This document shows, in pieces, positions 225 through 45,761 of a stretch of DNA of 45,761 nucleotides (positions are counted from its first letter, which is position 1; every line of letters begins with the position of its first letter). The stretch lies in IMG/VR virus record IMGVR_UViG_3300012080_000002; one strand, 5' to 3'. This DNA is from a virus. The notes beneath the pieces were generated by a model, which had not been told where the DNA came from, did not search any database, and saw nothing but the letters and a program-made list of their open reading frames with translations. Position numbers and translations under genes: made by a program.

Positions 225-1385
225 TCATCCACTTGCAAATTGATTCATCGTATCAATAGATTTAATTTCATCCTTTTCAAATGAATGGACATATACTTTC
301 AATATCGTATTAGGATCATCCCCAAGTATTTTTGCTACTGTAACAAGTGTTTCTCCGCGCGCAAGTAAAATAGAAGCAACGGTATGTCTTAAACCGTGAG
401 GTGATATTCTTCGTAATTCATATTTATTACAAATCATATCGATTGCATCCTCGACATAAGTCAAACCGATTGGGGCACAACCTTGTCTGGAAATGAAAAC
501 AAAATCCTCATCGTTGTGTTGCATGCTATTATTCCATTTCTTTTTTATACACCAAGCTTTATATGTTTTTAGTTTGACGTATAATTCGTCATTCATACTA
601 ATTTTCCTATAACCATTTTCACTCTTCGGTGGTCCTAGTCCAGTTCTAGTACGTGCTTTATTAATCGTGATAGACTTGGTTTTAAAATCAAGGTCTTTCC
701 AAGTTAATCCCATCATTTCGCCTTTACGCATACCTGTCATTGCTAAAGTTAAAATAGATGTATATCTAGTTGTAGGATCATTTTCTTTTACGCAGGATAG
801 AAAATGTTTTAGTTCTTCCTCTGTATAAAAGTTATCTTTATCACCAGTAGGGGCAGCACTAAAGTCCATTTTCTTAAAGCGATCTTTGGGCAGTATTTCT
901 TCATCGACAGCATAAGATAAAGCAGACTTAAACACTCTAAATATTCCTTGAATGGTTGCACGTTTTAACCTATATGAAACTAACACATCAATCAATTCTC
1001 TTTGTAGAGTCATTTTAGTGAGTTTTTGTAATTTGTAATGGCCAATAAGAGGTTTAATATGGTTATTATAAGACTCTTGATAAAGGATATACGTTCCAGG
1101 ACGCCACACGCTTTTTTTCATTTCAAACCAAATTTCCATCCATTGAGCCACGGTTAAATTTGCATTTTCGACATATCTATCATTTCCATCTAATACGTTT
1201 GCTTTTACTTCTATCAAAGCACGCTCAGCTGCTAGTTCAGTATCAAAACCTTGCTGAGATTTTTCCTTTCGCTTTCCAAATCGATCATAGTATTTATAGC
1301 GAAAAGCATACTTCTTTTCATTTTCTGAATCCTTGTACCAGTAAATGCAATCTTTTTTAGTAGTATAAAACTTTTTCCTAACCAT
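225..1385 (-). CDS. int: tyrosine recombinase / phage integrase
   Basis: C-terminal HGLRHTVASILLARG ... VYVH catalytic motifs and box I MRKGE. The ATG at 1385 has a GGAGG RBS. The track ORF extends to 1493 but has no RBS there. Confidence 0.9.
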   Translation of the reverse strand: MVRKKFYTTKKDCIYWYKDSENEKKYAFRYKYYDRFGKRKEKSQQGFDTELAAERALIEVKANVLDGNDRYVENANLTVAQWMEIWFEMKKSVWRPGTYILYQESYNNHIKPLIGHYKLQKLTKMTLQRELIDVLVSYRLKRATIQGIFRVFKSALSYAVDEEILPKDRFKKMDFSAAPTGDKDNFYTEEELKHFLSCVKENDPTTRYTSILTLAMTGMRKGEMMGLTWKDLDFKTKSITINKARTRTGLGPPKSENGYRKISMNDELYVKLKTYKAWCIKKKWNNSMQHNDEDFVFISRQGCAPIGLTYVEDAIDMICNKYELRRISPHGLRHTVASILLARGETLVTVAKILGDDPNTILKVYVHSFEKDEIKSIDTMNQFASG

Positions 1386-1406
1386 TGTGATTTCCTCCGT
1401 TTTAGC

Positions 1407-1420
1407 ACGAGCAGGTACAT
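1407..1420 (+). promoter_or_regulatory. 12/14 copy of the ACGAGCAGGTGCAA motif, just upstream of int
   Basis: AGCACGAGCAGGT is shared exactly with 4635-4647. See also 45481-45494 (reverse complement). Confidence 0.3.
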
Positions 1421-1509
1421 TGAAGAAAATCGTTTGCATCACTCCTTTCGATGGGAATGTACGTTCTTTTTTAGATGAGAAAAAAGCGCTCATACGAACG
1501 CTATTCAGA

Positions 1510-2301
1510 TTAAATTTTTAAGAGTTCTTTTTTCTTTTCTTCAAATTCTTCTTGTGTTAATACACCTATATCCAAAAGTTGTTTATACTTCAATATTTCA
1601 TCTGCTGCAGAGATAGATTGCCCTTGGTGACTAGTTGATTCAACTGAAGTTTGTTGTTGATTACAAATTAATTCTAAAACCGAAAGACATTCATGAGCCA
1701 GTTTATATGCATTTTTATATAACACTCCACTTTTTTTCATATCAGTCTCAATGAAGTTAACATAAACTACAGGATTATAAATATTGTTTAAAGTAATTTT
1801 TAATTTCAAACTACTACAAATACCCTTGGTTTTCTTTTTGCCGGTTACACCACCTACTATTGCACCAGCACCTCCAAATAAAGCTCCACCTACAAGAGCT
1901 CGACCTAAGCCACCAGAACTTATAGACTCACCATCTTCTAGTAATTCAAAATCAACAATATCACTATAGTCATAAACAGTAGATTTATTGCGTTTCCCTA
2001 AAATTGACGATAAAATAAGCCATTTTTTATTATTATCATCAAACTCTACAAAATTTCCAATTCGTTTTGTAGGATTAAATGATTCTAATTCAAGTTTATT
2101 TTCTTTTTGTGTAAGGATTGCATTTTTTATATCTTCAACGGTCATATGAGTAATAGCCTTTTCATTTTGGCCTATTTTTTTAAGGTTAGCTGCTTTAAAA
2201 CATGAAGGACACACCCATTTTTTATCTGCAATACGAAAACGGTTTAAACCTACTTCTTGATCACATACACCACATACTTGCTTTAAACTAAAAAAGCCCA
2301 T
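1510..2301 (-). CDS. zinc-ribbon / glycine-zipper / SHOCT-domain protein of unknown function
   Basis: N-terminal CGVC...CPSC. Central GGLGRALVGGALFGGAGAIVGG. The C-terminal AADEILKYKQLLDIGVLTQEEFEEKKKELL looks like a SHOCT motif. Confidence 0.6.
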   Translation of the reverse strand: MGFFSLKQVCGVCDQEVGLNRFRIADKKWVCPSCFKAANLKKIGQNEKAITHMTVEDIKNAILTQKENKLELESFNPTKRIGNFVEFDDNNKKWLILSSILGKRNKSTVYDYSDIVDFELLEDGESISSGGLGRALVGGALFGGAGAIVGGVTGKKKTKGICSSLKLKITLNNIYNPVVYVNFIETDMKKSGVLYKNAYKLAHECLSVLELICNQQQTSVESTSHQGQSISAADEILKYKQLLDIGVLTQEEFEEKKKELLKI

Positions 2302-2340
2302 TTTATCCCATCCTTTTCATTAACATTTTATAAATATGTA

Positions 2341-2787
2341 TTAAAATAGCCTCTTACATTTCAGTTTTACCAGCTCTAGCGGTACATTATGTAATGAAGC
2401 TATATCGTAAATAGTTTTTTGTTCATCGTAATCAAATAAATTTTCATCGGGTATTAAAAGATGAGCAGCAAAGGTATTTGCTTCTATTTCTACTTTATCA
2501 ACAGAGAAAAACGTATTTGTTCTCATGAAAGGTGTGTTTAGTTTAGTATGTAATAATGCATGACCTAATTCATGAGCACAAACAATTAGTTGTTCTTCGC
2601 TGCTTAAGCTACTGTTAATAAATATAAACCTGTTACGTTTTTCATATTGATAAAAACCTTTTATATCGGGTGGTAGATCCCAATAAAAAATTTCTGTTTT
2701 TAAATATTTGGCTAACGAAAATGGATTCCGGGTACCGTACTTTTTATATAAAGCCCCTACTTTTTGTCTAACCCACTCCATCCGCAT
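2341..2787 (-). CDS. ImmA/IrrE-family zinc metallopeptidase
   Basis: HELGHALLH (HEXXH) motif. It lies immediately downstream of the XRE repressor, the usual pairing. Confidence 0.85.
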   Translation of the reverse strand: MRMEWVRQKVGALYKKYGTRNPFSLAKYLKTEIFYWDLPPDIKGFYQYEKRNRFIFINSSLSSEEQLIVCAHELGHALLHTKLNTPFMRTNTFFSVDKVEIEANTFAAHLLIPDENLFDYDEQKTIYDIASLHNVPLELVKLKCKRLF

Positions 2788-2801
2788 CCCCTCGAATCAT
2801 T

Positions 2802-3251
2802 TTAATCTTCTTTATCTCTATATTTATTAGGAATGTACTTTTTGTTGTTTTTCTTCGCTAGTCTTACACCAAATTCCATTGCTTCTAATAAGGATTCTTT
2901 TGCTTCATCACTCATTGGTTCACCATCGAAAAGTAGACCGGTTGCAGATGATAAATCCTCGCGTAGTTCTGCCATTCGTTTGGAAATATCAATTTCATCT
3001 TTTCTGGAGAGGGAAGTAGACTTTTTCTCGTTTAGCTTAGGAATCATTTCTCCTTCACCAGTTAATAACCATTTATAAGAAACTCCATATAATTCAGTGA
3101 GTATGGCAAGTGTATTCATATCGGGTTCGCTAACATTATTCTCATAACCACTAAGCGTCTTATTATTAATATTAGTTCTGTCTTTAACCTGGGTTTGTCT
3201 TAACCCACTTTTTTGACGAGCTATTCTCAAACGTTCACCTAAAGTTTGCAT
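2802..3251 (-). CDS. XRE-family HTH repressor (CI-like)
   Basis: LGERLRIARQKSGLRQTQV... helix-turn-helix. ATG at 3251 follows an AAGGTGGTG RBS. It is divergent from the cro-like gene. Confidence 0.85.
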   Translation of the reverse strand: MQTLGERLRIARQKSGLRQTQVKDRTNINNKTLSGYENNVSEPDMNTLAILTELYGVSYKWLLTGEGEMIPKLNEKKSTSLSRKDEIDISKRMAELREDLSSATGLLFDGEPMSDEAKESLLEAMEFGVRLAKKNNKKYIPNKYRDKED

Positions 3252-3274
3252 TAAAACACCACCTTTTTTCTTTA

Positions 3275-3303
3275 AGTTTAAGAACATTTAAACATAATCT
3301 CAA
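3275..3303 (-). promoter_or_regulatory. candidate repressor promoter (TTGAGA-17-TAAACT on the minus strand)
   Basis: Read directly from the sequence. The 17-nt spacer was counted by hand. Confidence 0.45.
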
Positions 3304-3308
3304 AAATA

Positions 3309-3399
3309 AAGAATATTTTTCTTAAAAACTTAGAATTTTTATTGACTTCTTAGAAATTAAGAATTATAGTTAGTCTAACGAGTTCTTAGATATTAAGAA
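3309..3399. promoter_or_regulatory. operator cluster built from TTCTT/AAGAA half-sites
   Basis: 17-bp palindromes TTCTTAGAAATTAAGAA (3347-3363) and TTCTTAGATATTAAGAA (3383-3399). Also AAGAATATTTTTCTT (3309-3323) and TTCTTAAAAACTTAGAA (3319-3335). Confidence 0.6.
3342..3370 (+). promoter_or_regulatory. early rightward promoter TTGACT-17-TATAGT
   Basis: Near-consensus sigma-A hexamers. An operator palindrome fills the spacer. Confidence 0.6.
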
Positions 3400-3414
3400 A
3401 ATGAGGTGATCCTA

Positions 3415-3660: not shown

Positions 3661-4407
3661 ATGGATCAATTAGTAATTATTCAAAATCGCCAAGCGTTAA
3701 CAACATCAACACATGTTGCTGATTCATTTGAAAAGCGTCACGACAATATTTTGCGTGATATTGAAAGCTTTAAAAAAGATGTCCTCAATTTTGAGGAGAT
3801 GTTTTTCGAAACTGATATGCCGGATAGTTATGGACGACCTCGAAGAACTTTTCTTATGAATAGAGATGGGTTCACTTTACTAGCAATGGGCTTCACAGGA
3901 AAGAAAGCCATCCAGTTTAAATTGCAGTACATTCAAGCGTTTAATCAAATGGAAAAAATGTTGCTTGAACAGAATCGACCATCCTATGAAATATCTGATC
4001 CAGTTACTCGTGCTGAGAAATGGATTGAAGAAGAAAAACAGCGATTAATGTTGGCTGCTAAGGTCGAAGAACAAAAACCTAAAGTTCTATTCGCAGAAGC
4101 AATTCAAGCAAGTAAAACAACAATACTTATTGGCGAGTATGCAAAAATCTTAAAGCAAAACGGTGTAGACATTGGACAAAAGAGACTTTTCGAATGGCTT
4201 AGAGATAATGGATATTTAATCAAACGAAAAGGTTCTGACTATAACACACCGACTCAAAAGAGTATGGAGTTAGGTTTATTCGAAATAAAAGAAACACCAA
4301 TTCATCACACTAGTGGAGAAATCAGCATTTCAAGAACTTCAAAAATAACTGGTAAAGGGCAATCCTACTTCATTAATAAGTTTTTGACAAAGGAGGTTGC
4401 TATATGA
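3661..4407 (+). CDS. Rha-family regulator with a KilAC/ANT-type antirepressor C-terminal domain
   Basis: The N-terminus (LVIIQNRQALTTSTHVADSFEKRHDNILRDIE) is Rha-like. The C-terminus (PKVLFAEAIQASKTTILIGEYAKIL...LFEWLRDNGYL) is KilAC-like. Confidence 0.8.
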   Translation: MDQLVIIQNRQALTTSTHVADSFEKRHDNILRDIESFKKDVLNFEEMFFETDMPDSYGRPRRTFLMNRDGFTLLAMGFTGKKAIQFKLQYIQAFNQMEKMLLEQNRPSYEISDPVTRAEKWIEEEKQRLMLAAKVEEQKPKVLFAEAIQASKTTILIGEYAKILKQNGVDIGQKRLFEWLRDNGYLIKRKGSDYNTPTQKSMELGLFEIKETPIHHTSGEISISRTSKITGKGQSYFINKFLTKEVAI

Positions 4408-7998: not shown

Positions 7999-8054
7999 GG
8001 CAAGATTTGTGATTAAAAATTTGAATATTGCGACATAAGGAGAGGCGAGGGCAA

Positions 8055-8981
8055 ATGGCTAAATACAGAAATGTACACACAACGTTTTGGGATGACGGCT
8101 TTGTATTGGATCTTACACCAGAGGAGAAATACTTCTATCTGTATTTGATGACTAATGGCAATACAACGCAATGCGGCATCTACGAATTACCATACAGAGT
8201 AATAGAAATGCACACAGGTTACAACAGAGAAACAGTGCAGAAGTTACTACAACGATTTGTGGAGTACGGAAAAATCACATACAACGAATCAACAAAAGAA
8301 ATCATGTTGAATAACTGGGCAAAGTACAACTTTATCAACTCGCCGAAAGTGAAAAAATGTATCGAAAAAGAGCTGCTTGCAGTGAAACATATACCGTTTG
8401 TAAGGAGCTACTTAACCTCATTGGAACAGTTAGGATACCGTATTGATACCGTATCAATACTGTTAGATGAAAAAAGTGAGCAGAAAGTACCTAACACTAG
8501 TAATGGCGAGGGTTCGATACCGTATCCAAACCCTATAGATACCCCTTGCAAAGACTATGGGGAAGAAAGAGAAGAAGAAAGAGAAGAAGAAAGAGAAGAA
8601 GAAGAAGAAAAAGAAGGAGAAAGAGAAGAAGAAAAAAAGCCAATCGGTCAGTCTGTCACTCCTTCACTAATCGATAATGATTTCTTATCAATTAAAAACT
8701 TCTTCGACCAAACGATACGAATCAGCAATTTTACAGATCATAAAAAAATGGACAACATCCTAAAACTTTACCCTGACCATTTACTAATAATCGAAGCTAT
8801 CAAGGTAACAGCGGATAAAGGTAAATCAAACATGGAATACGTTGAAGCAATTTTGCGTAATTGGCGCACTGAAAAAGGTATTAACACTTATGCAGATTGG
8901 CAGTTAAAGGAGGTTCCGCAACATGCAAGCAATAAAGGAAACAATACAGGCAATGGGTACACGGTTGAGCTGGGCTTCTGA
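8055..8981 (+). CDS. replisome organizer / DnaD-domain replication protein
   Basis: The N-terminus (YRNVHTTFWDDGFVLDLTPEEKYFYLYLMTN) is organizer-like. The C-terminus (MEYVEAILRNWRTEKGI) is DnaD-like. ATG at 8055 follows AAGGAGAGG. Confidence 0.8.
   Translation: MAKYRNVHTTFWDDGFVLDLTPEEKYFYLYLMTNGNTTQCGIYELPYRVIEMHTGYNRETVQKLLQRFVEYGKITYNESTKEIMLNNWAKYNFINSPKVKKCIEKELLAVKHIPFVRSYLTSLEQLGYRIDTVSILLDEKSEQKVPNTSNGEGSIPYPNPIDTPCKDYGEEREEEREEEREEEEEKEGEREEEKKPIGQSVTPSLIDNDFLSIKNFFDQTIRISNFTDHKKMDNILKLYPDHLLIIEAIKVTADKGKSNMEYVEAILRNWRTEKGINTYADWQLKEVPQHASNKGNNTGNGYTVELGF
8562..8633 (+). repeat. tandem 12-bp repeats GAAGAAAGAGAA (3 exact copies plus degenerate copies) inside the organizer gene
   Basis: They encode the EEREEEREEEREEEEEKEGEREEE linker. 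Confidence 0.9.
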
Positions 8982-11574: not shown

Positions 11575-12003
11575 GTGAGTAAAGCAAAATACGGTAACAA
11601 AAAAGTTGTACATGATGGAATAACATTCGATTCAGCGATGGAAGCAAAGTATTACGATTACTTGAAACATCTACAAGCTCAAGGTATTGTGACTTCCTTT
11701 GAATTACAGCCAAGGTTTGTGTTATTGCCAAAGTTCGAAAAGAACGGAAAGAAGTATCGTGAGATAGGTTATAATGCGGATTTTACTGTTCATTATGCAG
11801 ATGGTCATACAGAAGTGGTTGACATCAAGGGGATGGTTACACAGCAATTTGAATTGAGGAAGAAGTTATTTGAATATCGTTATCCGCATGAATTGAAGCT
11901 TCTAACGTATTCAAAGATTGATGGTGGTTGGATAACTCATGATGAACTAAAAAAGGCTAGAAAAGCACGTAATGATATGAAAAAGAACGTCACTATTCAA
12001 TGA
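11575..12003 (+). CDS. DUF1064-like (resolvase-like) protein
   Basis: KYGNKKVVHDGITFDSAMEAKYYDYL...ADF...VDIKG. GTG at 11575 follows a GGAGG RBS. Confidence 0.6.
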   Translation: MSKAKYGNKKVVHDGITFDSAMEAKYYDYLKHLQAQGIVTSFELQPRFVLLPKFEKNGKKYREIGYNADFTVHYADGHTEVVDIKGMVTQQFELRKKLFEYRYPHELKLLTYSKIDGGWITHDELKKARKARNDMKKNVTIQ

Positions 12004-12765
12004 CGTTCAACGAAGGTGCGAATTCACCAAAATATTTTAATTCACCTTTTATTCGAGCTTGTTTAGCTTCTTCGAAAGTGTCGTAAGTTCCGAGACTAAT
12101 TTCTTTTCTATCTACCATTATTCTCGCACGAAACCGACCACTAGGCATAACTCTAATACCTGGATAACCAGTTGAGTTGTTTTTAGAAATTTTGTTATTT
12201 CGGGTATTTTGGACATTGCTGCATACTCGTAAATTTTCTTTCCGGTTATCCATAGGGTTCCCATTGATATGATCAACAACTTCTTTAGGGTTATCCAAAT
12301 CTAGAATGTAACGATGTAGCTTAGTATTCTTTTTATTGATACGTGCTACCAAGTAACCAGTTTTACTGATACACCATGAAGATTTAGATACTCTTTCTAG
12401 ATCTTCTAAGTCAAATATAAAATCTTCACCTTTATGGGTTGTCATCCTGACGACATCCCCATCAATTAAGTAAGGATTTTTCTTTTTGCCTTTCAGCTCC
12501 AAAGAGCCGTTGGCACACATTCTCAAGTAATGTTTGTTGCAGTAAGGAATAGATTCGAAAGTTGCTGAAAACGGACTATCACAAACAGAACATTTTTCTG
12601 GAGTTGTTTTAACTTTATATGCATTAGGATTGTTTTTTATATACCATTCTCTTTTGCGAGCTATGTCACGTTTTTAGAACAATTAACACAATATTTTTGT
12701 ACAGCTGAAGTAGGTAAGAATAAAACATTGCAAGAAATGCAGTTTTTATCGTCATATGTTTTCAT
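11993..12765 (-). pseudogene. HNH (HNH_3) + AP2-domain homing endonuclease, split by a frameshift in a 5-nt homopolymer
   Basis: VDHINGNPMDNRKENLRV and GYPGIRVMPSGRFRARI motifs lie in 11993-12526. The N-terminal zinc-ribbon part starts at 12765 (GTGAGGTG RBS) and is out of frame after the T5/A5 run at 12671-12675. Confidence 0.7.
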
Positions 12766-12879
12766 AATTTCACCTCACTTGAATTATACAACAATTGGTA
12801 ATTTGTTGAAAGTTGGATGAGACGTTATAAAAAGGTGTGATTGTACGGTATTCGAATAACTCAAGGGCAGAGGTGACGA

Positions 12880-13107
12880 TTGAATGGGGTGCCAGAGGTG
12901 AACACAGTTCGCAAGGAAGTTAAACAACGCAGAGCCCGGCTAATCAATCAGCAGGACCACATAGCTTTTCTCAAATGCAAAGTGTGTCCAAAACGTAAGG
13001 CTTTTGATCCTAGTAAGAAATGCAGAGGATGCAAGGTTTATAGAGAACTAAGAGGTATTGGTAAAGAGCTTGAGCAGATTAGTCGTTTGCGTAGGTGGGC
13101 TAGGTGA
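12880..13107 (+). CDS. small Cys-rich (CxxC...CxxC) basic protein
   Basis: CKVCPKR...CRGCKV. TTG start follows GAGGTG. Confidence 0.45.
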   Translation: MNGVPEVNTVRKEVKQRRARLINQQDHIAFLKCKVCPKRKAFDPSKKCRGCKVYRELRGIGKELEQISRLRRWAR

Positions 13108-13199
13108 GTATTTGAAAGAAAATGTCCAGCAAGGAAGAATCTTGCTGAACATTACTTTAAATATGATGATAATAATTTTACTAAAGGTTGGATTTCATA

Positions 13200-13589
13200 T
13201 TAATTAATGAAATCTTGAGGTACACATTCACGAACACCAGAATTTCTTAATGAGTTAAATAAAGCTGCACTGATTCTTAATAAAACATTGTTATCAGTGC
13301 CGTTTTCTAAATCATAGATTACAAAGTAAGAATTATTGATTGTAAAAATACATTTTCGTTCTAATTTAAATCCAGGTGGTACAGTTGGAAGGGTAAAACG
13401 CGGTACGATTACAGGTGTATCTCCTTCTTCTCTGATGAAATTGAATGTTTGTTGGTCAATCTCATAGATATTTACTGGATCAATCTCAACACCTTTATCT
13501 GGTATTGTAATTTCATCTTCAACTAGTAGGAAAAAGCGTTCGTTTCTAAAATTGAAAAGACTTCTCGCTCCAATTTCAAATGATGCCAT
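13200..13589 (-). CDS. hypothetical protein (129 aa)
   Basis: Strong AGGAGGTG RBS. No family recognised. Confidence 0.6.
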   Translation of the reverse strand: MASFEIGARSLFNFRNERFFLLVEDEITIPDKGVEIDPVNIYEIDQQTFNFIREEGDTPVIVPRFTLPTVPPGFKLERKCIFTINNSYFVIYDLENGTDNNVLLRISAALFNSLRNSGVRECVPQDFIN

Positions 13590-13775
13590 TTTATATTCAC
13601 CTCCTATCCTATAAATATATTATTCATATCAAATACAGTTGTTTGGACATTTAGGAATGGAGAGTGAAGAATAGTTTCTGGTCTAAAGTCATCAGAAGTT
13701 AATAGAAAAGGTGAGAGTGCTTTACGTCTATCGGATATGTAAAGAGAGTTACTAAACACTTTGAGGAAAGAAACT

Positions 13776-13800
13776 AAAAAGGGTCACTGAGCTGTGACCC
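13776..13800 (-). terminator. intrinsic terminator (minus strand)
   Basis: GGGTCAC-agctca-GTGACCC followed by TTTTT on the minus strand. Confidence 0.65.
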
Positions 13801-13806
13801 AAAATT

Positions 13807-13933
13807 GAGGGAGGTAGTGACTGTCAACTAGCGCCACAACCAAATAAGTGCGTGCGATACACTCAATGTTAAAATGTGCAGATTTAAGTTACCTATACAT
13901 TAAAAAAGCCGCAGCGTTTGCAGACGCTACAAC
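13807..13933 (-). repeat. X-element copy A (about 127-bp interspersed repeat)
   Basis: Aligns by eye with 15734-15860 and 17392-17518. Shared blocks are GAGG.AGG, GTGAC(G/T)GTCAAC, GCCACAACC and TATACATTA(A)AAAGCCG. Confidence 0.8.
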
Positions 13934-14043
13934 AATATTAAAAAAATATGTAGATAACTGCTAAGAATCAAAATAAAACGGGTTTTCAGCCAGCTTTACG
14001 CTGGAAGTATCTTAGCAGTTATACAACCACTATTTACAAATTG
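13902..14043 (-). repeat. Y-element copy A: terminator plus long hairpin (candidate small RNA on the minus strand)
   Basis: Shares flanks and the ATAACTGCTAAG/CTTAGCAGTTAT stem (13954-13965 / 14011-14022) with 15161-15298. Confidence 0.6.
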
Positions 14044-14105
14044 AAATGCTTTTATACACTTATTAGAAAGATATTGTGCAGGAAAGGAAGCGTGCATAAA
14101 TATGA

Positions 14106-14149
14106 AAATAAAAAAGGAGTAATTCCTGAAAACAAGGTTAATCACTCCT
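14106..14149 (-). terminator. intrinsic terminator of the BclA-C-like gene
   Basis: Minus strand: AGGAGTGATT-loop-AATTACTCCT followed by TTTTTTATTTT. Confidence 0.7.
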
Positions 14150-14202
14150 AACTACGAAAACTATTTTTTGATGTTTTCGAAACAAAGAGAGTCTTTCTAT
14201 AT

Positions 14203-14748
14203 CTATACAATTGGACTCAACAATTTAAGGATAATAGAAGCATTTACGTTAGTTTGCGTGCCTCCTGCTAAAGTTTGAAGAATTACCGCTGCAGCGGAGG
14301 AATGATTTCTAAGTGTAAGTATACCGCCAGACGGTATAGCAATTATTGCCTGACCATTGTTTTGTTGAGTACCAGCCCCTGAACCATAAACTGTTTCTGG
14401 AATCGGTACACCATTTAAAAATAATGTGAATTGGTTAGGTTCAACACCTGATACGCTGAAAGTAACTTCGTAGATCCCTGGTCTAGTAACAAAAATTTCA
14501 GAGGTTCCAGGAACATGCGTAATTCCCGGAGTAACTATACCTGTGGAATCAAAAATAATATCAGCTTCTACAGCTACAGTCTCAGGACCAAGATTATATA
14601 TATATCCATATTCGCATAGACCATTACATGTAGTTGGTATTATCGGAGGAATAGCGCCAGCAATTCCACAGAGATCAATAGCTCTGAAGGGTCCCGATTG
14701 GCTTCCGCATAAGCAAGAACGTTTATTACAGTTACTACAGTTATCCAT
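14203..14748 (-). CDS. BclA C-terminal-domain-like (C1q/TNF-like) putative spore-surface protein with a Cys-rich N-terminus
   Basis: PGIYEVTFSVSG..NQFTLFLNGVPIP...GQAIIAIPSGGILTLRNHS...VNASIILKLL matches the pattern of exosporium BclA-type C-terminal domains. ATG at 14748 follows GGAGGTG. Confidence 0.5.
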   Translation of the reverse strand: MDNCSNCNKRSCLCGSQSGPFRAIDLCGIAGAIPPIIPTTCNGLCEYGYIYNLGPETVAVEADIIFDSTGIVTPGITHVPGTSEIFVTRPGIYEVTFSVSGVEPNQFTLFLNGVPIPETVYGSGAGTQQNNGQAIIAIPSGGILTLRNHSSAAAVILQTLAGGTQTNVNASIILKLLSPIV

Positions 14749-14871
14749 TTTTTCACCTCCATTTGTGTATTTTATTCGCGTGAAATATGAAGTAGAGGGC
14801 AATGGACTAACAATCGACTAAATTTAGTTCATTATTGAAGGTTAAGTTACTGCACATGTTGAGGATTAAAC

Positions 14872-14898
14872 GAAAAAAGAGCGACTATAATATCGCTC
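14872..14898 (-). terminator. intrinsic terminator overlapping the stop of the 78-aa membrane protein gene
   Basis: Minus strand: GAGCGA-tattatag-TCGCTC followed by TTTTTT. Confidence 0.65.
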
Positions 14899-15121
14899 TA
14901 AAGAATTCATAAAATCCTGTTTCCATAGGAACAGCCCAAATATAAAAACCTATAATTGCAACAGGTCCTAAAAAGAAATTATATATTTTGCGAGGAAGAA
15001 CCTTTTTGAATAAAACAACATAGACTCCCATACAGACGCTCATAGCAACCACTAATAGAATGATCGGTGGTATGAAACTCCACAAGCTTATACCAATTGA
15101 TAAATCAGAAGATATGTCCAT
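14885..15121 (-). CDS. small integral membrane protein (2 predicted TM helices)
   Basis: The hydrophobic stretches IPPIILLVVAMSVCMGVYVVLF and GPVAIIGFYIWAV. It has its own promoter and terminator. Confidence 0.65.
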   Translation of the reverse strand: MDISSDLSIGISLWSFIPPIILLVVAMSVCMGVYVVLFKKVLPRKIYNFFLGPVAIIGFYIWAVPMETGFYEFFRAIL

Positions 15122-15150
15122 AGCAATACCTCATTATGTATTTTGTGTAA

Positions 15151-15159
15151 ATTATAACA
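15151..15159 (-). promoter_or_regulatory. extended -10 promoter TGtTATAAT (minus strand)
   Basis: Plus-strand ATTATAACA at 15151-15159, about 30 nt upstream of the ATG at 15121. Confidence 0.55.
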
Positions 15160-15160
15160 T

Positions 15161-15298
15161 AAAAAAGCCGCAGAGTTTGCAGACGCTACAGCATTATTAA
15201 AAAATATGTAGATAACTGCTATGACTGAAATCGGCGGTTCGTAATCATCAAAATGTTAGAAGAATTCATAGCAGTTAGAAGTATCATTTACAAAATTG
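15161..15298 (-). repeat. Y-element copy B
   Basis: The terminator stem is GCCGCAGAGT/ACGCTACAGC. The long hairpin is ATAACTGCTATG/CATAGCAGTTA (15212-15223 / 15267-15277). Both stem arms differ from copy A in a compensatory way. Confidence 0.6.
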
Positions 15299-15335
15299 TT
15301 TAATTTTAAACAAGGATTAAGTAAATCGAACAATA

Positions 15336-15363
15336 TAAAAGGATCACTGGACCAGAGTGACCC
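15336..15363 (-). terminator. intrinsic terminator (minus strand)
   Basis: Minus strand: GGGTCACT-ctggtcc-AGTGATCC then TTTTAT. It contains a G-U pair that would be an A-C mismatch on the plus strand. Confidence 0.55.
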
Positions 15364-15459
15364 TAAACCAACAAATCAAGAGGTGTCAAACTAAGAAACT
15401 AGCTTAACATTACTATTTATATGATTGGATAACTATGTTTATATAGTTCATTGCCTTTA

Positions 15460-15500
15460 AAAGAAAATAAAACAAGCTATAACGGCGAGGTCGTTATAGC
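15460..15500 (-). terminator. intrinsic terminator (minus strand)
   Basis: Perfect 9-bp stem GCTATAACG/CGTTATAGC followed by TTGTTTTATTTT on the minus strand. Confidence 0.6.
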
Positions 15501-15564
15501 CCAATAAAGAAGTGTGTGATAGCCACATATCTGTCTTTTCTAAATTGCAAAATTTTATTCAAAT

Positions 15565-15595
15565 AAAAAAGATCACTTCAATTAAGAAAGTGACC
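15565..15595 (-). terminator. intrinsic terminator (minus strand)
   Basis: Minus strand: GGTCACTT-loop-AAGTGATC then TTTTTT. Confidence 0.6.
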
Positions 15596-15733
15596 AAATG
15601 GTAACTAAATCCTATCAAGGAGCTAATGGGAAGTGCCATTATGGGATTAGCTGGGGTGATTTTTCTCTAGCATAAACAGTACAGTTTATTCTATGTATTA
15701 AAAAGCATGGGATTAGGCGATTGTTTGAAAAAA

Positions 15734-15860
15734 GAAGGAGGCCGTGACGGTCAACCAACGCCACAACCTTTAAGATGTGTGTGATACACAAAAATACTTT
15801 GTGAAGATTAAGGATTATTATACATTATAAAAGCCGAAACGTGATTAACTTTACAGCTAC
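15734..15860 (-). repeat. X-element copy C (its terminator part is degenerate)
   Basis: GAAGGAGGCCGTGACGGTCAACCAACGCCACAACC... aligns with copies A and D. Confidence 0.75.
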
Positions 15861-15869
15861 TTTAATTGC

Positions 15870-16727
15870 TTAATTATTCATATCTGAAAGGCCTGGGCTG
15901 TGTTCATTAGGCATTTCTGGCATAAGTGGTACTGGGAATCCTTGAGGAGGAGGAGTTACATTTAATTCTCCGCCATTCCTACTTGGCGTTTGGCCTTGGA
16001 ATATTTCACCCATACGTGTTGGGTCTAATCTGAAGTTAAATTGAGCATTGTGATAACCCATTTCAACAAATTTTCTACACTCAGGGTACTTATTGATATC
16101 GTAGTTTGGTACAGGGAACAGTTTTCCCCAATCAACACCTAAAGTTTCTAATGCTTTGGCAAATGCGTTTTGGTGCGCATTATCACGAACAATTAAGAAT
16201 GCGAGCGTTTCTCTAAAGGTCTGATTAGAACTCATTTCATAAATACGTGTTTTTTGAAGTACTCCAGTTGACTCAAGTACTAAATTATCTAATAAATCAG
16301 CAATGAGGTTGCCATGTGCATAAACCCACGATCCATTCCAAGGATTACCTGCGGCATCGACAGGTAATGAAGATTGTGCTCCCACAATGTAATGGTGAGG
16401 GTTTGCGTGTTTGATAGCCTCATCTAAAGGAGCTTGGTCCACACCATTATTACCAGGTGCCGAAGATTCCCCAGAATCATTTAGTAATTGGTTAATTGTA
16501 TTTTGCACAAGCTCTACGTGAGCAATTTCTTCTAAAAATACACCACGAAGTAAGTCGCGATATTGAGTTTCTTTACCTCTGAAATTTGAGCTTTGGAAGA
16601 AATATTGCATCATGGTTCTCATTTCACCATAATGACCACCAAGTATTTCTTGTAATACACGTGCTGCTTGAGGATCTGGTTTGTCAGGTTTAATAATGTT
16701 TATTAATTCTTCTTTGTAATAATACAT
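15870..16727 (-). CDS. manganese catalase (ferritin-like; YdbD/YjqC/CotJC family)
   Basis: PDPQAARVLQEILGGHYGEMRTMMQYFFQS...LEEIAHVELV is the typical Mn-catalase N-terminal signature. Confidence 0.85.
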   Translation of the reverse strand: MYYYKEELINIIKPDKPDPQAARVLQEILGGHYGEMRTMMQYFFQSSNFRGKETQYRDLLRGVFLEEIAHVELVQNTINQLLNDSGESSAPGNNGVDQAPLDEAIKHANPHHYIVGAQSSLPVDAAGNPWNGSWVYAHGNLIADLLDNLVLESTGVLQKTRIYEMSSNQTFRETLAFLIVRDNAHQNAFAKALETLGVDWGKLFPVPNYDINKYPECRKFVEMGYHNAQFNFRLDPTRMGEIFQGQTPSRNGGELNVTPPPQGFPVPLMPEMPNEHSPGLSDMNN

Positions 16728-16762
16728 TTAGTATTCCTCGATTCAGTGCGGAATTTTTAATA

Positions 16763-17272
16763 TTATTTTTCAGGATAATCTACGTGTAGTGGTGGTGGAA
16801 CTAACCAACCTTTATTTTTATTAAGGCGAAGCAGTTTGCCCCCAATTAGAGCTTTTGCTGCATGGAATTGACCATACATTAATGCTATATCTTCGCGGGT
16901 TGATGTACCCATTGCTTGGCTACATGCAACTAATCCAGCAGCTAGGTCTACTGACAGTGCAGCACTAATTTCTGGATCATTAAACTTTGCGCCTGCAGGA
17001 ATATCTTCCAATCTTGCTACAGGTCGTTCAGGTGGAGCAGGAGGTAAACCAATTCCATTAGTTTTTAGTATTTTTTCTAATTGTTTTACTTCATCCCTAC
17101 AAAGTTCGATTATATCTTCAATAATTTTTTTAAGATCTTCATCACCTGTGTGATTATAAAACGTTTGATAGCCAGCAATCATGCCGTAGTCTGTCATTAA
17201 TCCTGTCCAAACACTAAATACTTCACCATAATGCAATGGTTCATCTTTTGGATTTCCACCAAGAATACCCAT
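16763..17272 (-). CDS. DUF3231-like (ferritin-like, coat-associated family) protein
   Basis: PLHYGEVFSVWTGL...GIGLPPAPPERP pattern. It lies 36 nt upstream of the catalase gene, so an operon is probable. The start at 17272 is uncertain. Confidence 0.5.
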   Translation of the reverse strand: MGILGGNPKDEPLHYGEVFSVWTGLMTDYGMIAGYQTFYNHTGDEDLKKIIEDIIELCRDEVKQLEKILKTNGIGLPPAPPERPVARLEDIPAGAKFNDPEISAALSVDLAAGLVACSQAMGTSTREDIALMYGQFHAAKALIGGKLLRLNKNKGWLVPPPLHVDYPEK

Positions 17273-17391
17273 AATTACACATCCTTTTCTGTTTTTATTG
17301 CTATTTTTCAAACAAGGATAGTATGGTTGAAATTAAAAAATTAATTCAAAAAAATAAGGATTCAGCAATATGAGGAAAAATTGAAATAAAT

Positions 17392-17518
17392 GAGGGAGTT
17401 CGTGACGGTCAACCAATGCTATAACCTAAAATGTGCGGGCGACACACTCAATAATAATTTGCGCAGATAAAAGTCACTTATACATTAAAAAAGCCGCAGC
17501 GTCGTAACACGCTACAGC
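17392..17518 (-). repeat. X-element copy D, including a terminator hairpin (17487-17518)
   Basis: GAGGGAGTTCGTGACGGTCAACCAATGCTATAACC...TATACATTAAAAAAGCCGCAGCGT-cgtaac-ACGCTACAGC. Confidence 0.8.
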
Positions 17519-17587
17519 TCGAATTGGTTTATGCCCTTTTGAATAATGGCTTAGTCATACAAGCATTATATCATAGGGGGCAAAACT

Positions 17588-18007
17588 ATGTTAAAAGAGA
17601 AAACAGAATTAAATCGCTACCAACTAGACAAGGCAATCAAGAAGTACCATGACAACATGTGTAAATACATGAGAATGAAGGACGAGCTTGATTCATTAAC
17701 AGCTGCTGCATCTACAGCGCAATATGGAATTGAAGCAACAATGCCAAAAGCAGTTGGTGGCACAAGTGATCCAGTCCATGCACATGTGCAAATCAGAGCA
17801 GCGCGCGAGGTACGAATTAACAAGATTAAAGACGAGCTACTTTTGGTGCAAAATTTAACGAGCAAGGTAACTGGCGACATAGAGCAAGAAGTACTTTATT
17901 GGTTGCTAGAGGGCATGCCATTCCGTTGGATAGGGGCAAAGCTTAATATGAGCCATACAAGCGTACAACGAGTGCGAGAACGAGTTATTGATTTGATGAT
18001 GAAGTGA
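17588..18007 (+). CDS. ArpU-family late transcriptional regulator
   Basis: 139 aa with a C-terminal sigma region-4-like HTH (WIGAKLNMSHTSVQRVRERV). It sits at the early/late boundary. Confidence 0.65.
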   Translation: MLKEKTELNRYQLDKAIKKYHDNMCKYMRMKDELDSLTAAASTAQYGIEATMPKAVGGTSDPVHAHVQIRAAREVRINKIKDELLLVQNLTSKVTGDIEQEVLYWLLEGMPFRWIGAKLNMSHTSVQRVRERVIDLMMK

Positions 18008-18130
18008 CCTTCGGGTTGCTTCTTTTCTTTTTTGGCATGATTTTAGTAATTGCGCCTACAATAAACAAGGGGATGGATTTCTTAATTATCTTATTGAGTA
18101 TGAGGAGCATATAATGATTGAGGATGATTC

Positions 18131-18445
18131 ATGTATATTTTTAAATTAGGAGGTAAAGGCTTGGGTAAAGATAAAAATCAGAATCAATTAAATCAATCTC
18201 CTGAATCTATAGATATATACGTTGCTAAACTTACGTTTATCGGAGCTAGCATATCTACTCTTGGAGATGGCTTGCAAGCGATCGCAGCAGGTATTGCATT
18301 AGAGGCTTTAGAAAAAAAGGAACAATCAAATGATAAAAGTTCTCAAAGCCAGAATGGACAATCAAAACAGTTAGAAAAAATGCAAAAACAGATTGATGAT
18401 TTAATAAATGAATTAAATCAAGTGAAGAAAATGTTTAGGTGGTAA
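18131..18445 (+). CDS. hypothetical protein
   Basis: An alternative TTG start at 18161 follows AGGAGGT. The C-terminal KQIDDLINELNQVKK is shared in type with the next ORF. Confidence 0.5.
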   Translation: MYIFKLGGKGLGKDKNQNQLNQSPESIDIYVAKLTFIGASISTLGDGLQAIAAGIALEALEKKEQSNDKSSQSQNGQSKQLEKMQKQIDDLINELNQVKKMFRW

Positions 18446-45698: not shown

Positions 45699-45761
45699 AC
45701 GCTATAATGTAGGACGAGGTGAAGAAAATGTTTGTGAGTGAAAAACAGATTGAGATTCGAT
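45699..45761 (+). repeat. attR: right copy of the direct repeat
   Basis: Identical to nt 1-63. Confidence 0.9.
45728..45761 (+). CDS. 5' end of the (presumably intact) thioesterase gene, continuing beyond the window
   Basis: Same ATG, RBS and codons as at 30. The frame is still open at the window end. Confidence 0.5.
   Translation, partial: MFVSEKQIEIR

Follow-up and report, generated by a model that had tools for sequence, protein, structure and literature searches.

X, a putative sporulation-type small-RNA unit repeated at the cargo-cassette joints of a Lysinibacillus temperate phage

The accessory region and the three copies of X

We analysed a 45,761-nt stretch of viral DNA, IMG/VR record IMGVR_UViG_3300012080_000002 (hereafter the window), in which a repeat of about 127 bp, here called X, occurs three times among accessory genes transcribed against the phage backbone. 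Related loci used for comparison carry L-numbers. The window ends are identical over 63 bp (positions 1-63 and 45699-45761, direct-repeat search), so that the window is a circular assembly of a complete temperate phage genome of ~45.7 kb. Its phage genes include those for a tyrosine integrase, an ImmA-type protease, a helix-turn-helix (HTH) repressor, a single-stranded DNA-binding protein (SSB), a DUF1064 resolvase, terminases and an endolysin. As homologous loci were found in the genomes of Lysinibacillus sp. ZYM-1, RC79 and RS11, the host is a Lysinibacillus. The following backbone genes serve as landmarks.

225-1493, phage tyrosine integrase with arm-binding domain, the sole recombinase among the 20 open reading frames (ORFs) of the window that were scanned
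12003, end of the DUF1064 resolvase gene
17588-18007, arpU, ArpU-like late regulator

X is situated in a hot spot of Lysinibacillus temperate phages that is flanked by the early/replication genes, with a RusA or DUF1064 resolvase gene, on one side and by the gene of the ArpU-type late regulator on the other, and that is otherwise taken up by spore-related cargo. From the end of the resolvase gene to the start of arpU nearly all features lie on the minus strand, and 13 of the 14 terminator-like hairpins detected in 12500-18200 are minus-strand ones (2.6 expected). BLAST found no match in GenBank phages for the 5-kb region around the repeats, and none in GenBank phages or PLSDB plasmids for copy A.

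A direct-repeat search and alignment placed the full copies A, C and D at 13803-13931, 15728-15860 and 17386-17518, all in one orientation, and the core pattern GTGACNGTCAACNNNNGCNANAACC occurs three times in the window against 0.00 expected in shuffles. A covariance model of the family scored copies A, C and D at 81.7, 71.7 and 71.4 bits, respectively (E ~1e-22 to 1e-25). Since these copies are part of the training alignment of the model, the informative outcome of the search is the lack of any other match: apart from a degenerate unit X' (13.3 bits, E 0.04), the rest of the window never exceeded 13 bits. The preliminary description of this locus, made from the sequence alone, had already reported three equally oriented copies, and these stand. 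The conserved blocks that it listed are likewise all present, except that the first block of copy D reads GAGGGAGT and not GAGG(G/A)AGG.

In total, about 20 homologues of X were collected from IMG/VR contigs, metagenomes and Lysinibacillus genomes/prophages by pattern scans and BLAST, all with the same anatomy. Each homologous stretch carries one copy, the window alone having three; the orientation is constant, and the position is always inside one prophage hot spot. X is missing from most close ArpU relatives (L050-L064). No Rfam 15 family matched anywhere in the window at gathering thresholds, and at E<=10 only chance matches were obtained in 13000-18000, none of them on X copies, in line with the earlier failure to recognise a known RNA family.

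That the copies could be a common host repeat similar to miniature inverted-repeat transposable elements (MITEs) had been considered beforehand and did not hold. X was found once per homologous stretch, a pattern scan of 185,579 species genomes matched only three, all Lysinibacillus, with one copy each, and no terminal inverted repeats were seen by eye, with no tool search made for them. X resembles MITEs and host interspersed repeats, such as the bcr repeats of the Bacillus cereus group, in being a non-coding interspersed repeat of ~130 bp with hairpins, but differs in its single copy per other locus, its constant orientation and its confinement to a single prophage hot spot.

Anatomy of the repeat

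Read in the RNA sense, which is the minus strand of the window, the homologues share a common order: a terminator hairpin T1 with U6; a promoter region consisting of AATGTATA(G/A)N and a box CAnAnTA 17 nt after GTATA; a hairpin P1; a variable linker; a hairpin P2; a CU-rich tract (CCUCCCUCAUUUAU); a second terminator hairpin T2 (GGGUCAC..GUGACCC followed by U4-6); and a conserved backbone motif, TTTCCTCATATTGTTCAGTAAC. The previously proposed layout of terminator, promoter, conserved RNA and second terminator is supported by this order. The individual copies in the window are composed as follows; promoters and RNAs are predictions.

13933-13908, minus, terminator T1(A): 10 pairs, 5 GC, tail TTTTTT; belongs to the upstream unit and not to X proper
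13870-13898, minus, promoter of X(A), GTATA-N17-CATTTTA, forespore sigma-G/F type; boxes conserved in all homologues
13776-13868, minus, X(A) RNA: fold -28.1 kcal/mol, z -2.5
13865-13845, minus, P1 of X(A)
13841-13813, minus, P2 of X(A)
13812-13801, minus, unpaired ACCUCCCUCAAUUUU of X(A)
13800-13781, minus, terminator T2(A): 7 pairs, T5/U5 tail
15142-15230, minus, partial copy B: T1 hairpin only (15204-15168), then a sigma-A extended -10 box, TGTTATAAT, at 15159-15151
15340-15364, minus, T2-like terminator AGGGTCAC..GTGATCCT without an X body, from the terminator scan
15545-15456, minus, X', degenerate X-like unit: small P1; 12-bp P2 acting as terminator; fold z -3.2
15830-15862, minus, degenerate T1-like hairpin of copy C, directly behind the catalase stop codon; not called by the terminator scan
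15795-15823, minus, promoter of X(C), GTATA-N17-CAAAGTA
15721-15795, minus, X(C) RNA: P2 stem of 10 bp with UCCUUCUUUUUUC behind it, terminator-like; no T2
17520-17491, minus, terminator T1(D): 12 pairs, T6; ends an antisense unit that starts by arpU
17455-17483, minus, promoter of X(D), GTATA-N17-CAAATTA
17379-17453, minus, X(D) RNA: P2 degenerate with 6/10 pairs (by eye); T2 deleted

As had been noticed for the end hairpins of copies A and D, the terminators T1(A), T2(A) and T1(D) form on the minus strand only; on the plus strand A-C mismatches take the place of their G-U pairs, and there is no T-run behind them. The second terminator said to lie behind copy A is T2(A). Copy B precedes a 78-aa gene (15121-14885), the same arrangement being present in L060, and X' is syntenic with the X of L191.

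In other loci T1 and X occur apart. T1 without an X body was found in L050-L058, in L060 and in the diverged L065 (47% ArpU identity), while X stands behind a different terminator in L024, L191 and L216. In L059 the promoter of the antisense unit is present and the terminator differs. Because T1 and X occur independently, X proper starts at AATGTATA. Judged from these loci, the 127-bp element is a composite of T1, which belongs to another unit, and X proper, and the end hairpin counted as part of the element in the preliminary description has to be removed from it.

Two further sequences border these modules. The motif TTTCCTCA(T/A)A(T/G)TGTTCAGTAAC follows closely on T2, or on X in the absence of T2 (in the window at 13740-13762 and 17362-17378, minus strand, and in many loci), and directly after T1 in the X-less L055; it marks a fixed edge of the hot spot. 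A second repeat adjoins T1(A) and T1(B) (13957-14010 and 15215-15282) and contains a 12-13-bp inverted repeat, the arms of which differ between the copies by a compensatory change (AACTGCTAAGA/TCTTAGCAGTT versus AACTGCTATGA/TCATAGCAGTT); its fold has a z of -4.5, and both strands fold alike.

Structure of the predicted X RNA

From its predicted start (G of GAGUGU), the RNA of copy A would comprise ~90 nt with P1, P2, an open CU tract and T2. P1 is 5'-terminal (GAGUGU-AUCGCAC-GCACUU), and P2 has 9-10 bp (G(G/C)UGUGGCG-YURGUUGAC-CGUCAC(G/A)GC) with the loop motif GUUGAC being invariant. In most copies P2 is followed by the unpaired CU-rich tract resembling an anti-Shine-Dalgarno sequence (CCUCCCUC).

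The pairing is strand-biased. In the minus sense 93.6% of the alignment cells in P1 and P2 are paired, 60 of them as G-U, against 71.3% on the opposite strand, which agrees with the strand originally assigned. In controls with slid partners only 27-57% of cells paired, compared to 94% for the real structure (18 distinct sequences), and RNAalifold recovered P1 and P2 independently. Double changes were observed at two pairs, positions 32-56 being CG, UA or UG and positions 33-55 UG or UA, and one AU replaces a GC. In T2, GGGUCAC/GUGACCC is changed to AGGUCAC/GUGACCU in L131 and L143 (by eye).

A protein-coding role was considered for both strands and rejected, as the frames are not conserved and no Shine-Dalgarno sequence is present in the RNA sense. 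The short frame starting at GTG (MTVN), already regarded as non-coding, is not maintained in the homologues either; it stops after 4-22 codons and is shifted by 4-nt indels.

In most contexts X ends at T2 or at a P2 with a U-run tail. A short form of ~60-65 nt, with the U-run directly after P2 and no T2, is found in L191, L208, L015 and copy C of the window. These ends, together with a minus-strand gene that always lies downstream (a 129-aa gene after X(A), the DUF3231 gene after X(D), a 64-aa gene directly after X in L015/L018), might be taken to mean that X is a cis-acting 5' leader or attenuator, with P2 or T2 being a conditional terminator for the downstream genes. The U-run behind P2 in some copies would fit this. 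However, no alternative (antiterminator) pairing is evident, the DUF3231 and gamma-type small acid-soluble spore protein (gamma-SASP) genes possess promoters of their own between X and the gene, and no Rfam riboswitch or leader family is matched. We regard such a cis-acting function as quite unlikely.

Predicted promoter of X

GTATA is invariant in all X copies and its spacing to CAnAnTA is exactly 17 bp in each of them; a search for GTATA-N17-box gave four matches in the window against 0.67 expected, three of the four within X. The consensus of sigma-G promoters in B. subtilis is GnATr-17/18-CATnnTA, and the -35 box and 17-bp spacing of X fit it. The promoter of X is thus best read as a forespore-type promoter, GYATA-N17-CAnAnTA, most similar to that of sigma-G.

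Similar promoters occur elsewhere. GYATA-N17-CAAAWTA with unrelated spacers heads unrelated small units (L024 at 7892 and 1125, L051 at 3847, L015 at 276), of which the L051 unit lacks the TG and the L015 unit has GCATA, either change breaking a sigma-A extended -10. The gamma-SASP genes of these hosts (protein identity by Pfam PF04259 and TIGR01442) are preceded by GGATA-N17-CAGACTA, conserved out to Viridibacillus, and the operon for a DUF3231 protein and a Mn catalase has its own near-consensus sigma-G promoter, GAATT-N17-CATACTA (17347-17319, minus strand), at whose position L191 carries GTATA-N17-CATACTA. In B. subtilis, sspE is a standard sigma-G-responsive gene (PMC3174212).

The preliminary description had placed a -10-like box at TATAGG, TATAAT or TATAAG, and X may indeed be imagined to be driven by a sigma-A extended -10 promoter (TGTATAAG/TGTATAGG), giving an RNA of ~105-120 nt that would be constitutive in the lysogen. 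A TG stands one base ahead of TATA(A/G)N in nearly all copies, and neighbouring units have clear TGnTATAAT promoters. On the other hand, there is no -35 box, and the hexamer ends in T in only one of the 17 distinct X copies, namely copy C of the window (the hexamers seen being TATAGG, TATAAG, TATAAA and TATAGA), which makes the -10 reading of TATAGG/TATAAG unlikely. Moreover, the unrelated units mentioned above retain G(T/C)ATA together with the second box at its distance of 17 nt, yet lose the TG (L051) or the TATA (L015: GCATAAAT). We therefore consider transcription by sigma-A an unlikely alternative. With the forespore-type promoter, the predicted start is shifted ~30 nt further downstream, and the RNA would measure ~65-90 nt and not ~105 nt as first proposed.

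Two other candidates were discarded. Sigma-K, sigma-E and sigma-F promoters fit worse when compared by eye with their consensus sequences, there being no AC at -35, no CATACA save in L208 and no GG at -10. X was also considered as the native promoter of the gamma-SASP gene, directly upstream of which it lies in L145 and L216. The SASP gene has its own GGATA-N17-CAGACTA; this promoter occurs in L214/L215 without X immediately upstream, the X copy there being ~1 kb further upstream before a GNAT gene, and in L217/L218 without any strong X match.

A separate small unit, Z, with a GTATA-N17-CAAA(T/A)TA promoter was noticed between T1 and the DUF3231 gene (L024 7800-7895 and 1050-1130, L051 ~3760-3850). 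It reads GUGUAGUGGCGAACUAC..AAGGAGCUGCAGAG.. and then a terminator, ~60 nt in total, and suggests that several families of putative sporulation-type small units exist in the hot spot.

Proposed role of X

Starting from the sequence family, its strand bias, its anatomy and its genomic context, we infer that X would be transcribed in a sigma-dependent manner and that its RNA would act in trans, as follows. X would be an autonomous sporulation-type small-RNA unit (an 'RNA moron') which doubles as a recombination joint, an explanation that we hold to be somewhat more probable than all others combined. The forespore-type promoter would drive a minus-strand non-coding RNA of ~65-90 nt, ending at T2, or at P2 where a U-run follows. 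Copy A would represent a complete stand-alone unit and copy C would end at its own P2. As P2 is weakened and T2 deleted in copy D, transcription from X(D) would run on towards the DUF3231 and catalase genes, the operon of which also has its own promoter. The X RNA may act in trans, its CU tract or P2 loop probably base-pairing with mRNAs of the developing spore, and the shared X, T1 and T2 sequences would supply homology for cassette exchange. Of the options raised in the preliminary description, that of a small-RNA or leader family is thus favoured.

Several observations weigh against this explanation. The -10 box of X is CA(A/C/T)AnTA, copy A alone having CAT, and the third position of the others is A or C in place of the T of the B. 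subtilis sigma-G consensus; the gamma-SASP promoter of the same hosts departs from the consensus at the same position (CAGACTA), while the DUF3231 promoter has CATACTA. The TG preceding TATA(A/G)N, absent only in L216, would suit a sigma-A extended -10. The family is shallow (70-85% identity), and although pairing in P1 and P2 was high in the homologue alignment that had been suggested as a check, covariation was not significant: 52 of 500 shuffles reached the observed pairing and 60 of 500 the covariation score. RNA duplex energies calculated against the translation-initiation regions of all window ORFs revealed no outstanding target, the method being too permissive to be informative. Finally, L015, L191 and L208, which are short forms, have no CU tract, and the invariant P2 loop and 3' arm together make up a DNA palindrome, TGACNGTCA, a possible protein-binding site.

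The palindrome and nearby blocks might thus be conserved at the DNA level, as a module of regulator (transcription-factor) binding sites. GTTGAC(C/A)GTCAC is the most invariant stretch of X, and its loop part is unexplained by pairing. Yet its 3' half is paired with the 5' arm of P2 and changes along with it (GUGACG/CGUCAC in L033 and L122; the whole arm replaced in L015), L015/L018 lose the palindrome and keep the rest of X, and the strand-asymmetric G-U pattern favours RNA, all of which leaves a binding-site module very improbable.

As for the CU tract, it cannot be the universal functional part of X since short forms lack it. By eye, it pairs with just 5-6 nt of the arpU ribosome-binding site. 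The antisense unit contains an ACCAA to which the P2 loop could bind where it reads UUGGUU, but in many copies this loop is CUAGUU. A more far-fetched idea, to which we give hardly any weight, is that the X RNA is a forespore-specific mimic of the 3' end of 16S rRNA, where a hairpin is followed by single-stranded CCUCC(C/U)UC; the tract of copy C reads CCUCCUUCU, compared to CCUCCUUUCU in 16S rRNA. Such a mimic would occupy Shine-Dalgarno sequences and damp the translation of phage lytic or host mRNAs in the developing spore, so that the prophage might be carried into the spore during expression of its cargo of spore-coat, exosporium and catalase genes.

Cargo cassettes and origin of the three copies

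Downstream of T1 the hot spot contains cargo that varies by phage and is transcribed against the backbone. It includes small membrane or zinc-ribbon proteins with sigma-A promoters, X itself, gamma-SASP (L214-L216), a GNAT acetyltransferase, DUF3231 with or without Mn catalase, and a BclA_C-domain protein. In the window, the cargo is arranged as follows.

15870-17272, minus, operon with the genes for DUF3231 (16763-17272) and for Mn catalase (15870-16727), located between X(D) and X(C)
14203-15121, minus, cargo flanked by X(A) and copy B: genes for a BclA_C-domain protein (14203-14748/14802) and a 78-aa protein (14885-15121)

The flanking of the DUF3231-catalase operon by copies D and C is as originally reported. 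DUF3231 probably starts with the ATG at 17272, which gives the 169 aa seen in homologues, and not with the TTG at 17311.

The copies in the window are more similar to copies of other phages than to each other: copy A is 100% identical to the X of L003 and copy D 83% identical to that of L145, while identities within the window amount to 76% (A-D), 71% (C-D) and 68% (A-C). Triplication in situ or recent duplication was rejected on this ground. L003 contains a single X, identical to copy A, with the BclA-like cassette on the opposite side of it, and the order of the shared cassettes varies between relatives. The T1 of L003 is chimeric: its loop is that of A, its 3' flank is that of D, and it leads straight into arpU-proximal sequence. 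The junction lies within the T1 hairpin that the copies share, which is what homologous exchange would produce. From the closer relatives outside the window, the permuted cassettes and the chimeric T1, it can be concluded that the copies are separately acquired alleles which also form recombination joints. The link with cassette shuffling suspected earlier is thereby borne out. A relation to integron attC sites fails, as no integron integrase was found among the 20 ORFs scanned and X is not present at every cassette end.

Location at such joints would also be compatible with X being a non-functional promoter-leader stub left by a deleted cargo gene, kept by hitch-hiking and as recombination homology. 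Cassette order varies among relatives, an X sequence precedes protein genes in L015/L018 and L145/L216, and most of the close ArpU relatives do without X. On the other hand, the promoter boxes are conserved in ~18 distinct sequences at 70-85% identity, as are the two stems and the two loops, whereas linker length and tail vary; the unit always terminates at T2 or P2; and changes in the stems are G-U/A-U compatible on one strand only. A remnant of this kind is, in our opinion, not likely.

Several chromosomal loci bear on the origin of the cargo. The DUF3231-catalase operon of the window has chromosomal counterparts with 86% identity in L. parviboronicapiens (L217). In L217, positions 942-3409 comprise a cluster of DUF3231, Mn catalase, gamma-SASP and F-ENA (endospore appendage) genes with a T1-like terminator, and the backbone motif CCTCATATTGTTCAGTAAC lies behind the SASP gene. 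In L214, L215 and L216, which are Lysinibacillus chromosomes, and in L145, gamma-SASP genes lie inside the prophage hot spot, between the RusA and ArpU genes and beside integrase or holin genes. Because of this position, the gamma-SASP gene, which encodes a major spore protein, appears to be carried by phages or phage remnants in several Lysinibacillus strains.

Comparison with known systems

Phage morons, as described by Hendrix and co-workers, consist of a gene with its own promoter and terminator and are found inserted into the backbone of lambdoid phages, between two genes. X resembles them in being autonomous, with its own predicted promoter and terminator, in its predicted transcription apart from the phage programme, in occupying a fixed hot spot and in being present or absent among close relatives. 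It differs from them in that the 'gene' would be a ~70-nt non-coding RNA, the promoter is sporulation-like, and the unit occurs three times in one genome and marks cassette joints.

DicF, IsrK, AgvB and AsxR are regulatory small RNAs encoded by E. coli prophages. They are, like the predicted X RNA, short and structured, have their own terminator and are located in accessory regions of temperate phages. There is no homology between them and X, which occurs in a Gram-positive host with another type of promoter and has no known target or chaperone.

RsaE/RoxS RNAs act through an unpaired C/U-rich tract complementary to Shine-Dalgarno sequences. X likewise has an unpaired C/U tract (CCUCC versus GGAGG) between its hairpins and the terminator, but it shows no sequence similarity to this C-rich small RNA family of Firmicutes (PMC4409812), its tract is missing in the short forms, and pairing of X with mRNAs is hypothetical.

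CsfG, a forespore small RNA of Bacillus subtilis controlled by sigma-F/sigma-G (Marchais et al. 2011, as described in PMC9147052), is, with phage morons and the prophage small RNAs of enterobacteria, among the closest in kind to X. Both are small non-coding RNAs with a forespore-type promoter (predicted for X) and neither has a known target. However, CsfG is chromosomal and conserved across endospore formers, whereas X is phage-borne, accessory and limited to Lysinibacillus-type prophages, and its expression is a prediction. Neither by sequence nor by covariance model is X similar to any Rfam family.

If transcribed as predicted, X would be, as far as we know, the first case of a temperate phage having a small RNA controlled by a forespore-type promoter. 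X would further mark the hot spot where Lysinibacillus phages gather spore genes (gamma-type SASP, DUF3231, Mn catalase, BclA-like exosporium protein, endospore-appendage protein), and would offer a handle on how prophages change spore properties and behave during sporulation. The recurring modules X, T1 and T2 give a base-resolution view of the swapping and stacking of cargo cassettes between phages. Should X not be transcribed, it would still be a useful marker of mosaic joints, otherwise ordinary.

Putative antisense unit at arpU and other observations

The unit terminated by T1(D) starts at the arpU gene itself.

17485-17594, minus, antisense unit asRNA-1: promoter TTAACA-18-TGaTATAAT (TGATATAAT) at 17594-17565, matching 11/12 plus TG

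Its promoter overlaps the ribosome-binding site and start codon of arpU and is followed by AAAGGGCATAAACCAATTCGAGC and T1(D), the predicted RNA being ~70 nt long. This arrangement before arpU is kept in 12 relatives, one of them with just 47% ArpU identity. asRNA-1 is a candidate for antisense or divergent control of the late activator ArpU.

Two minor features outside the repeats were also noticed. A gene for an HNH-AP2 homing-type endonuclease (11993-12526, minus strand) is inserted right behind the DUF1064 resolvase gene and is missing at the corresponding place in the otherwise collinear L003 and L050. The ORF at 8028-8981 contains an AAG/GAA-rich tandem repeat with units of 12-18 bp (8551-8634), which would encode a low-complexity stretch rich in Lys and Glu.

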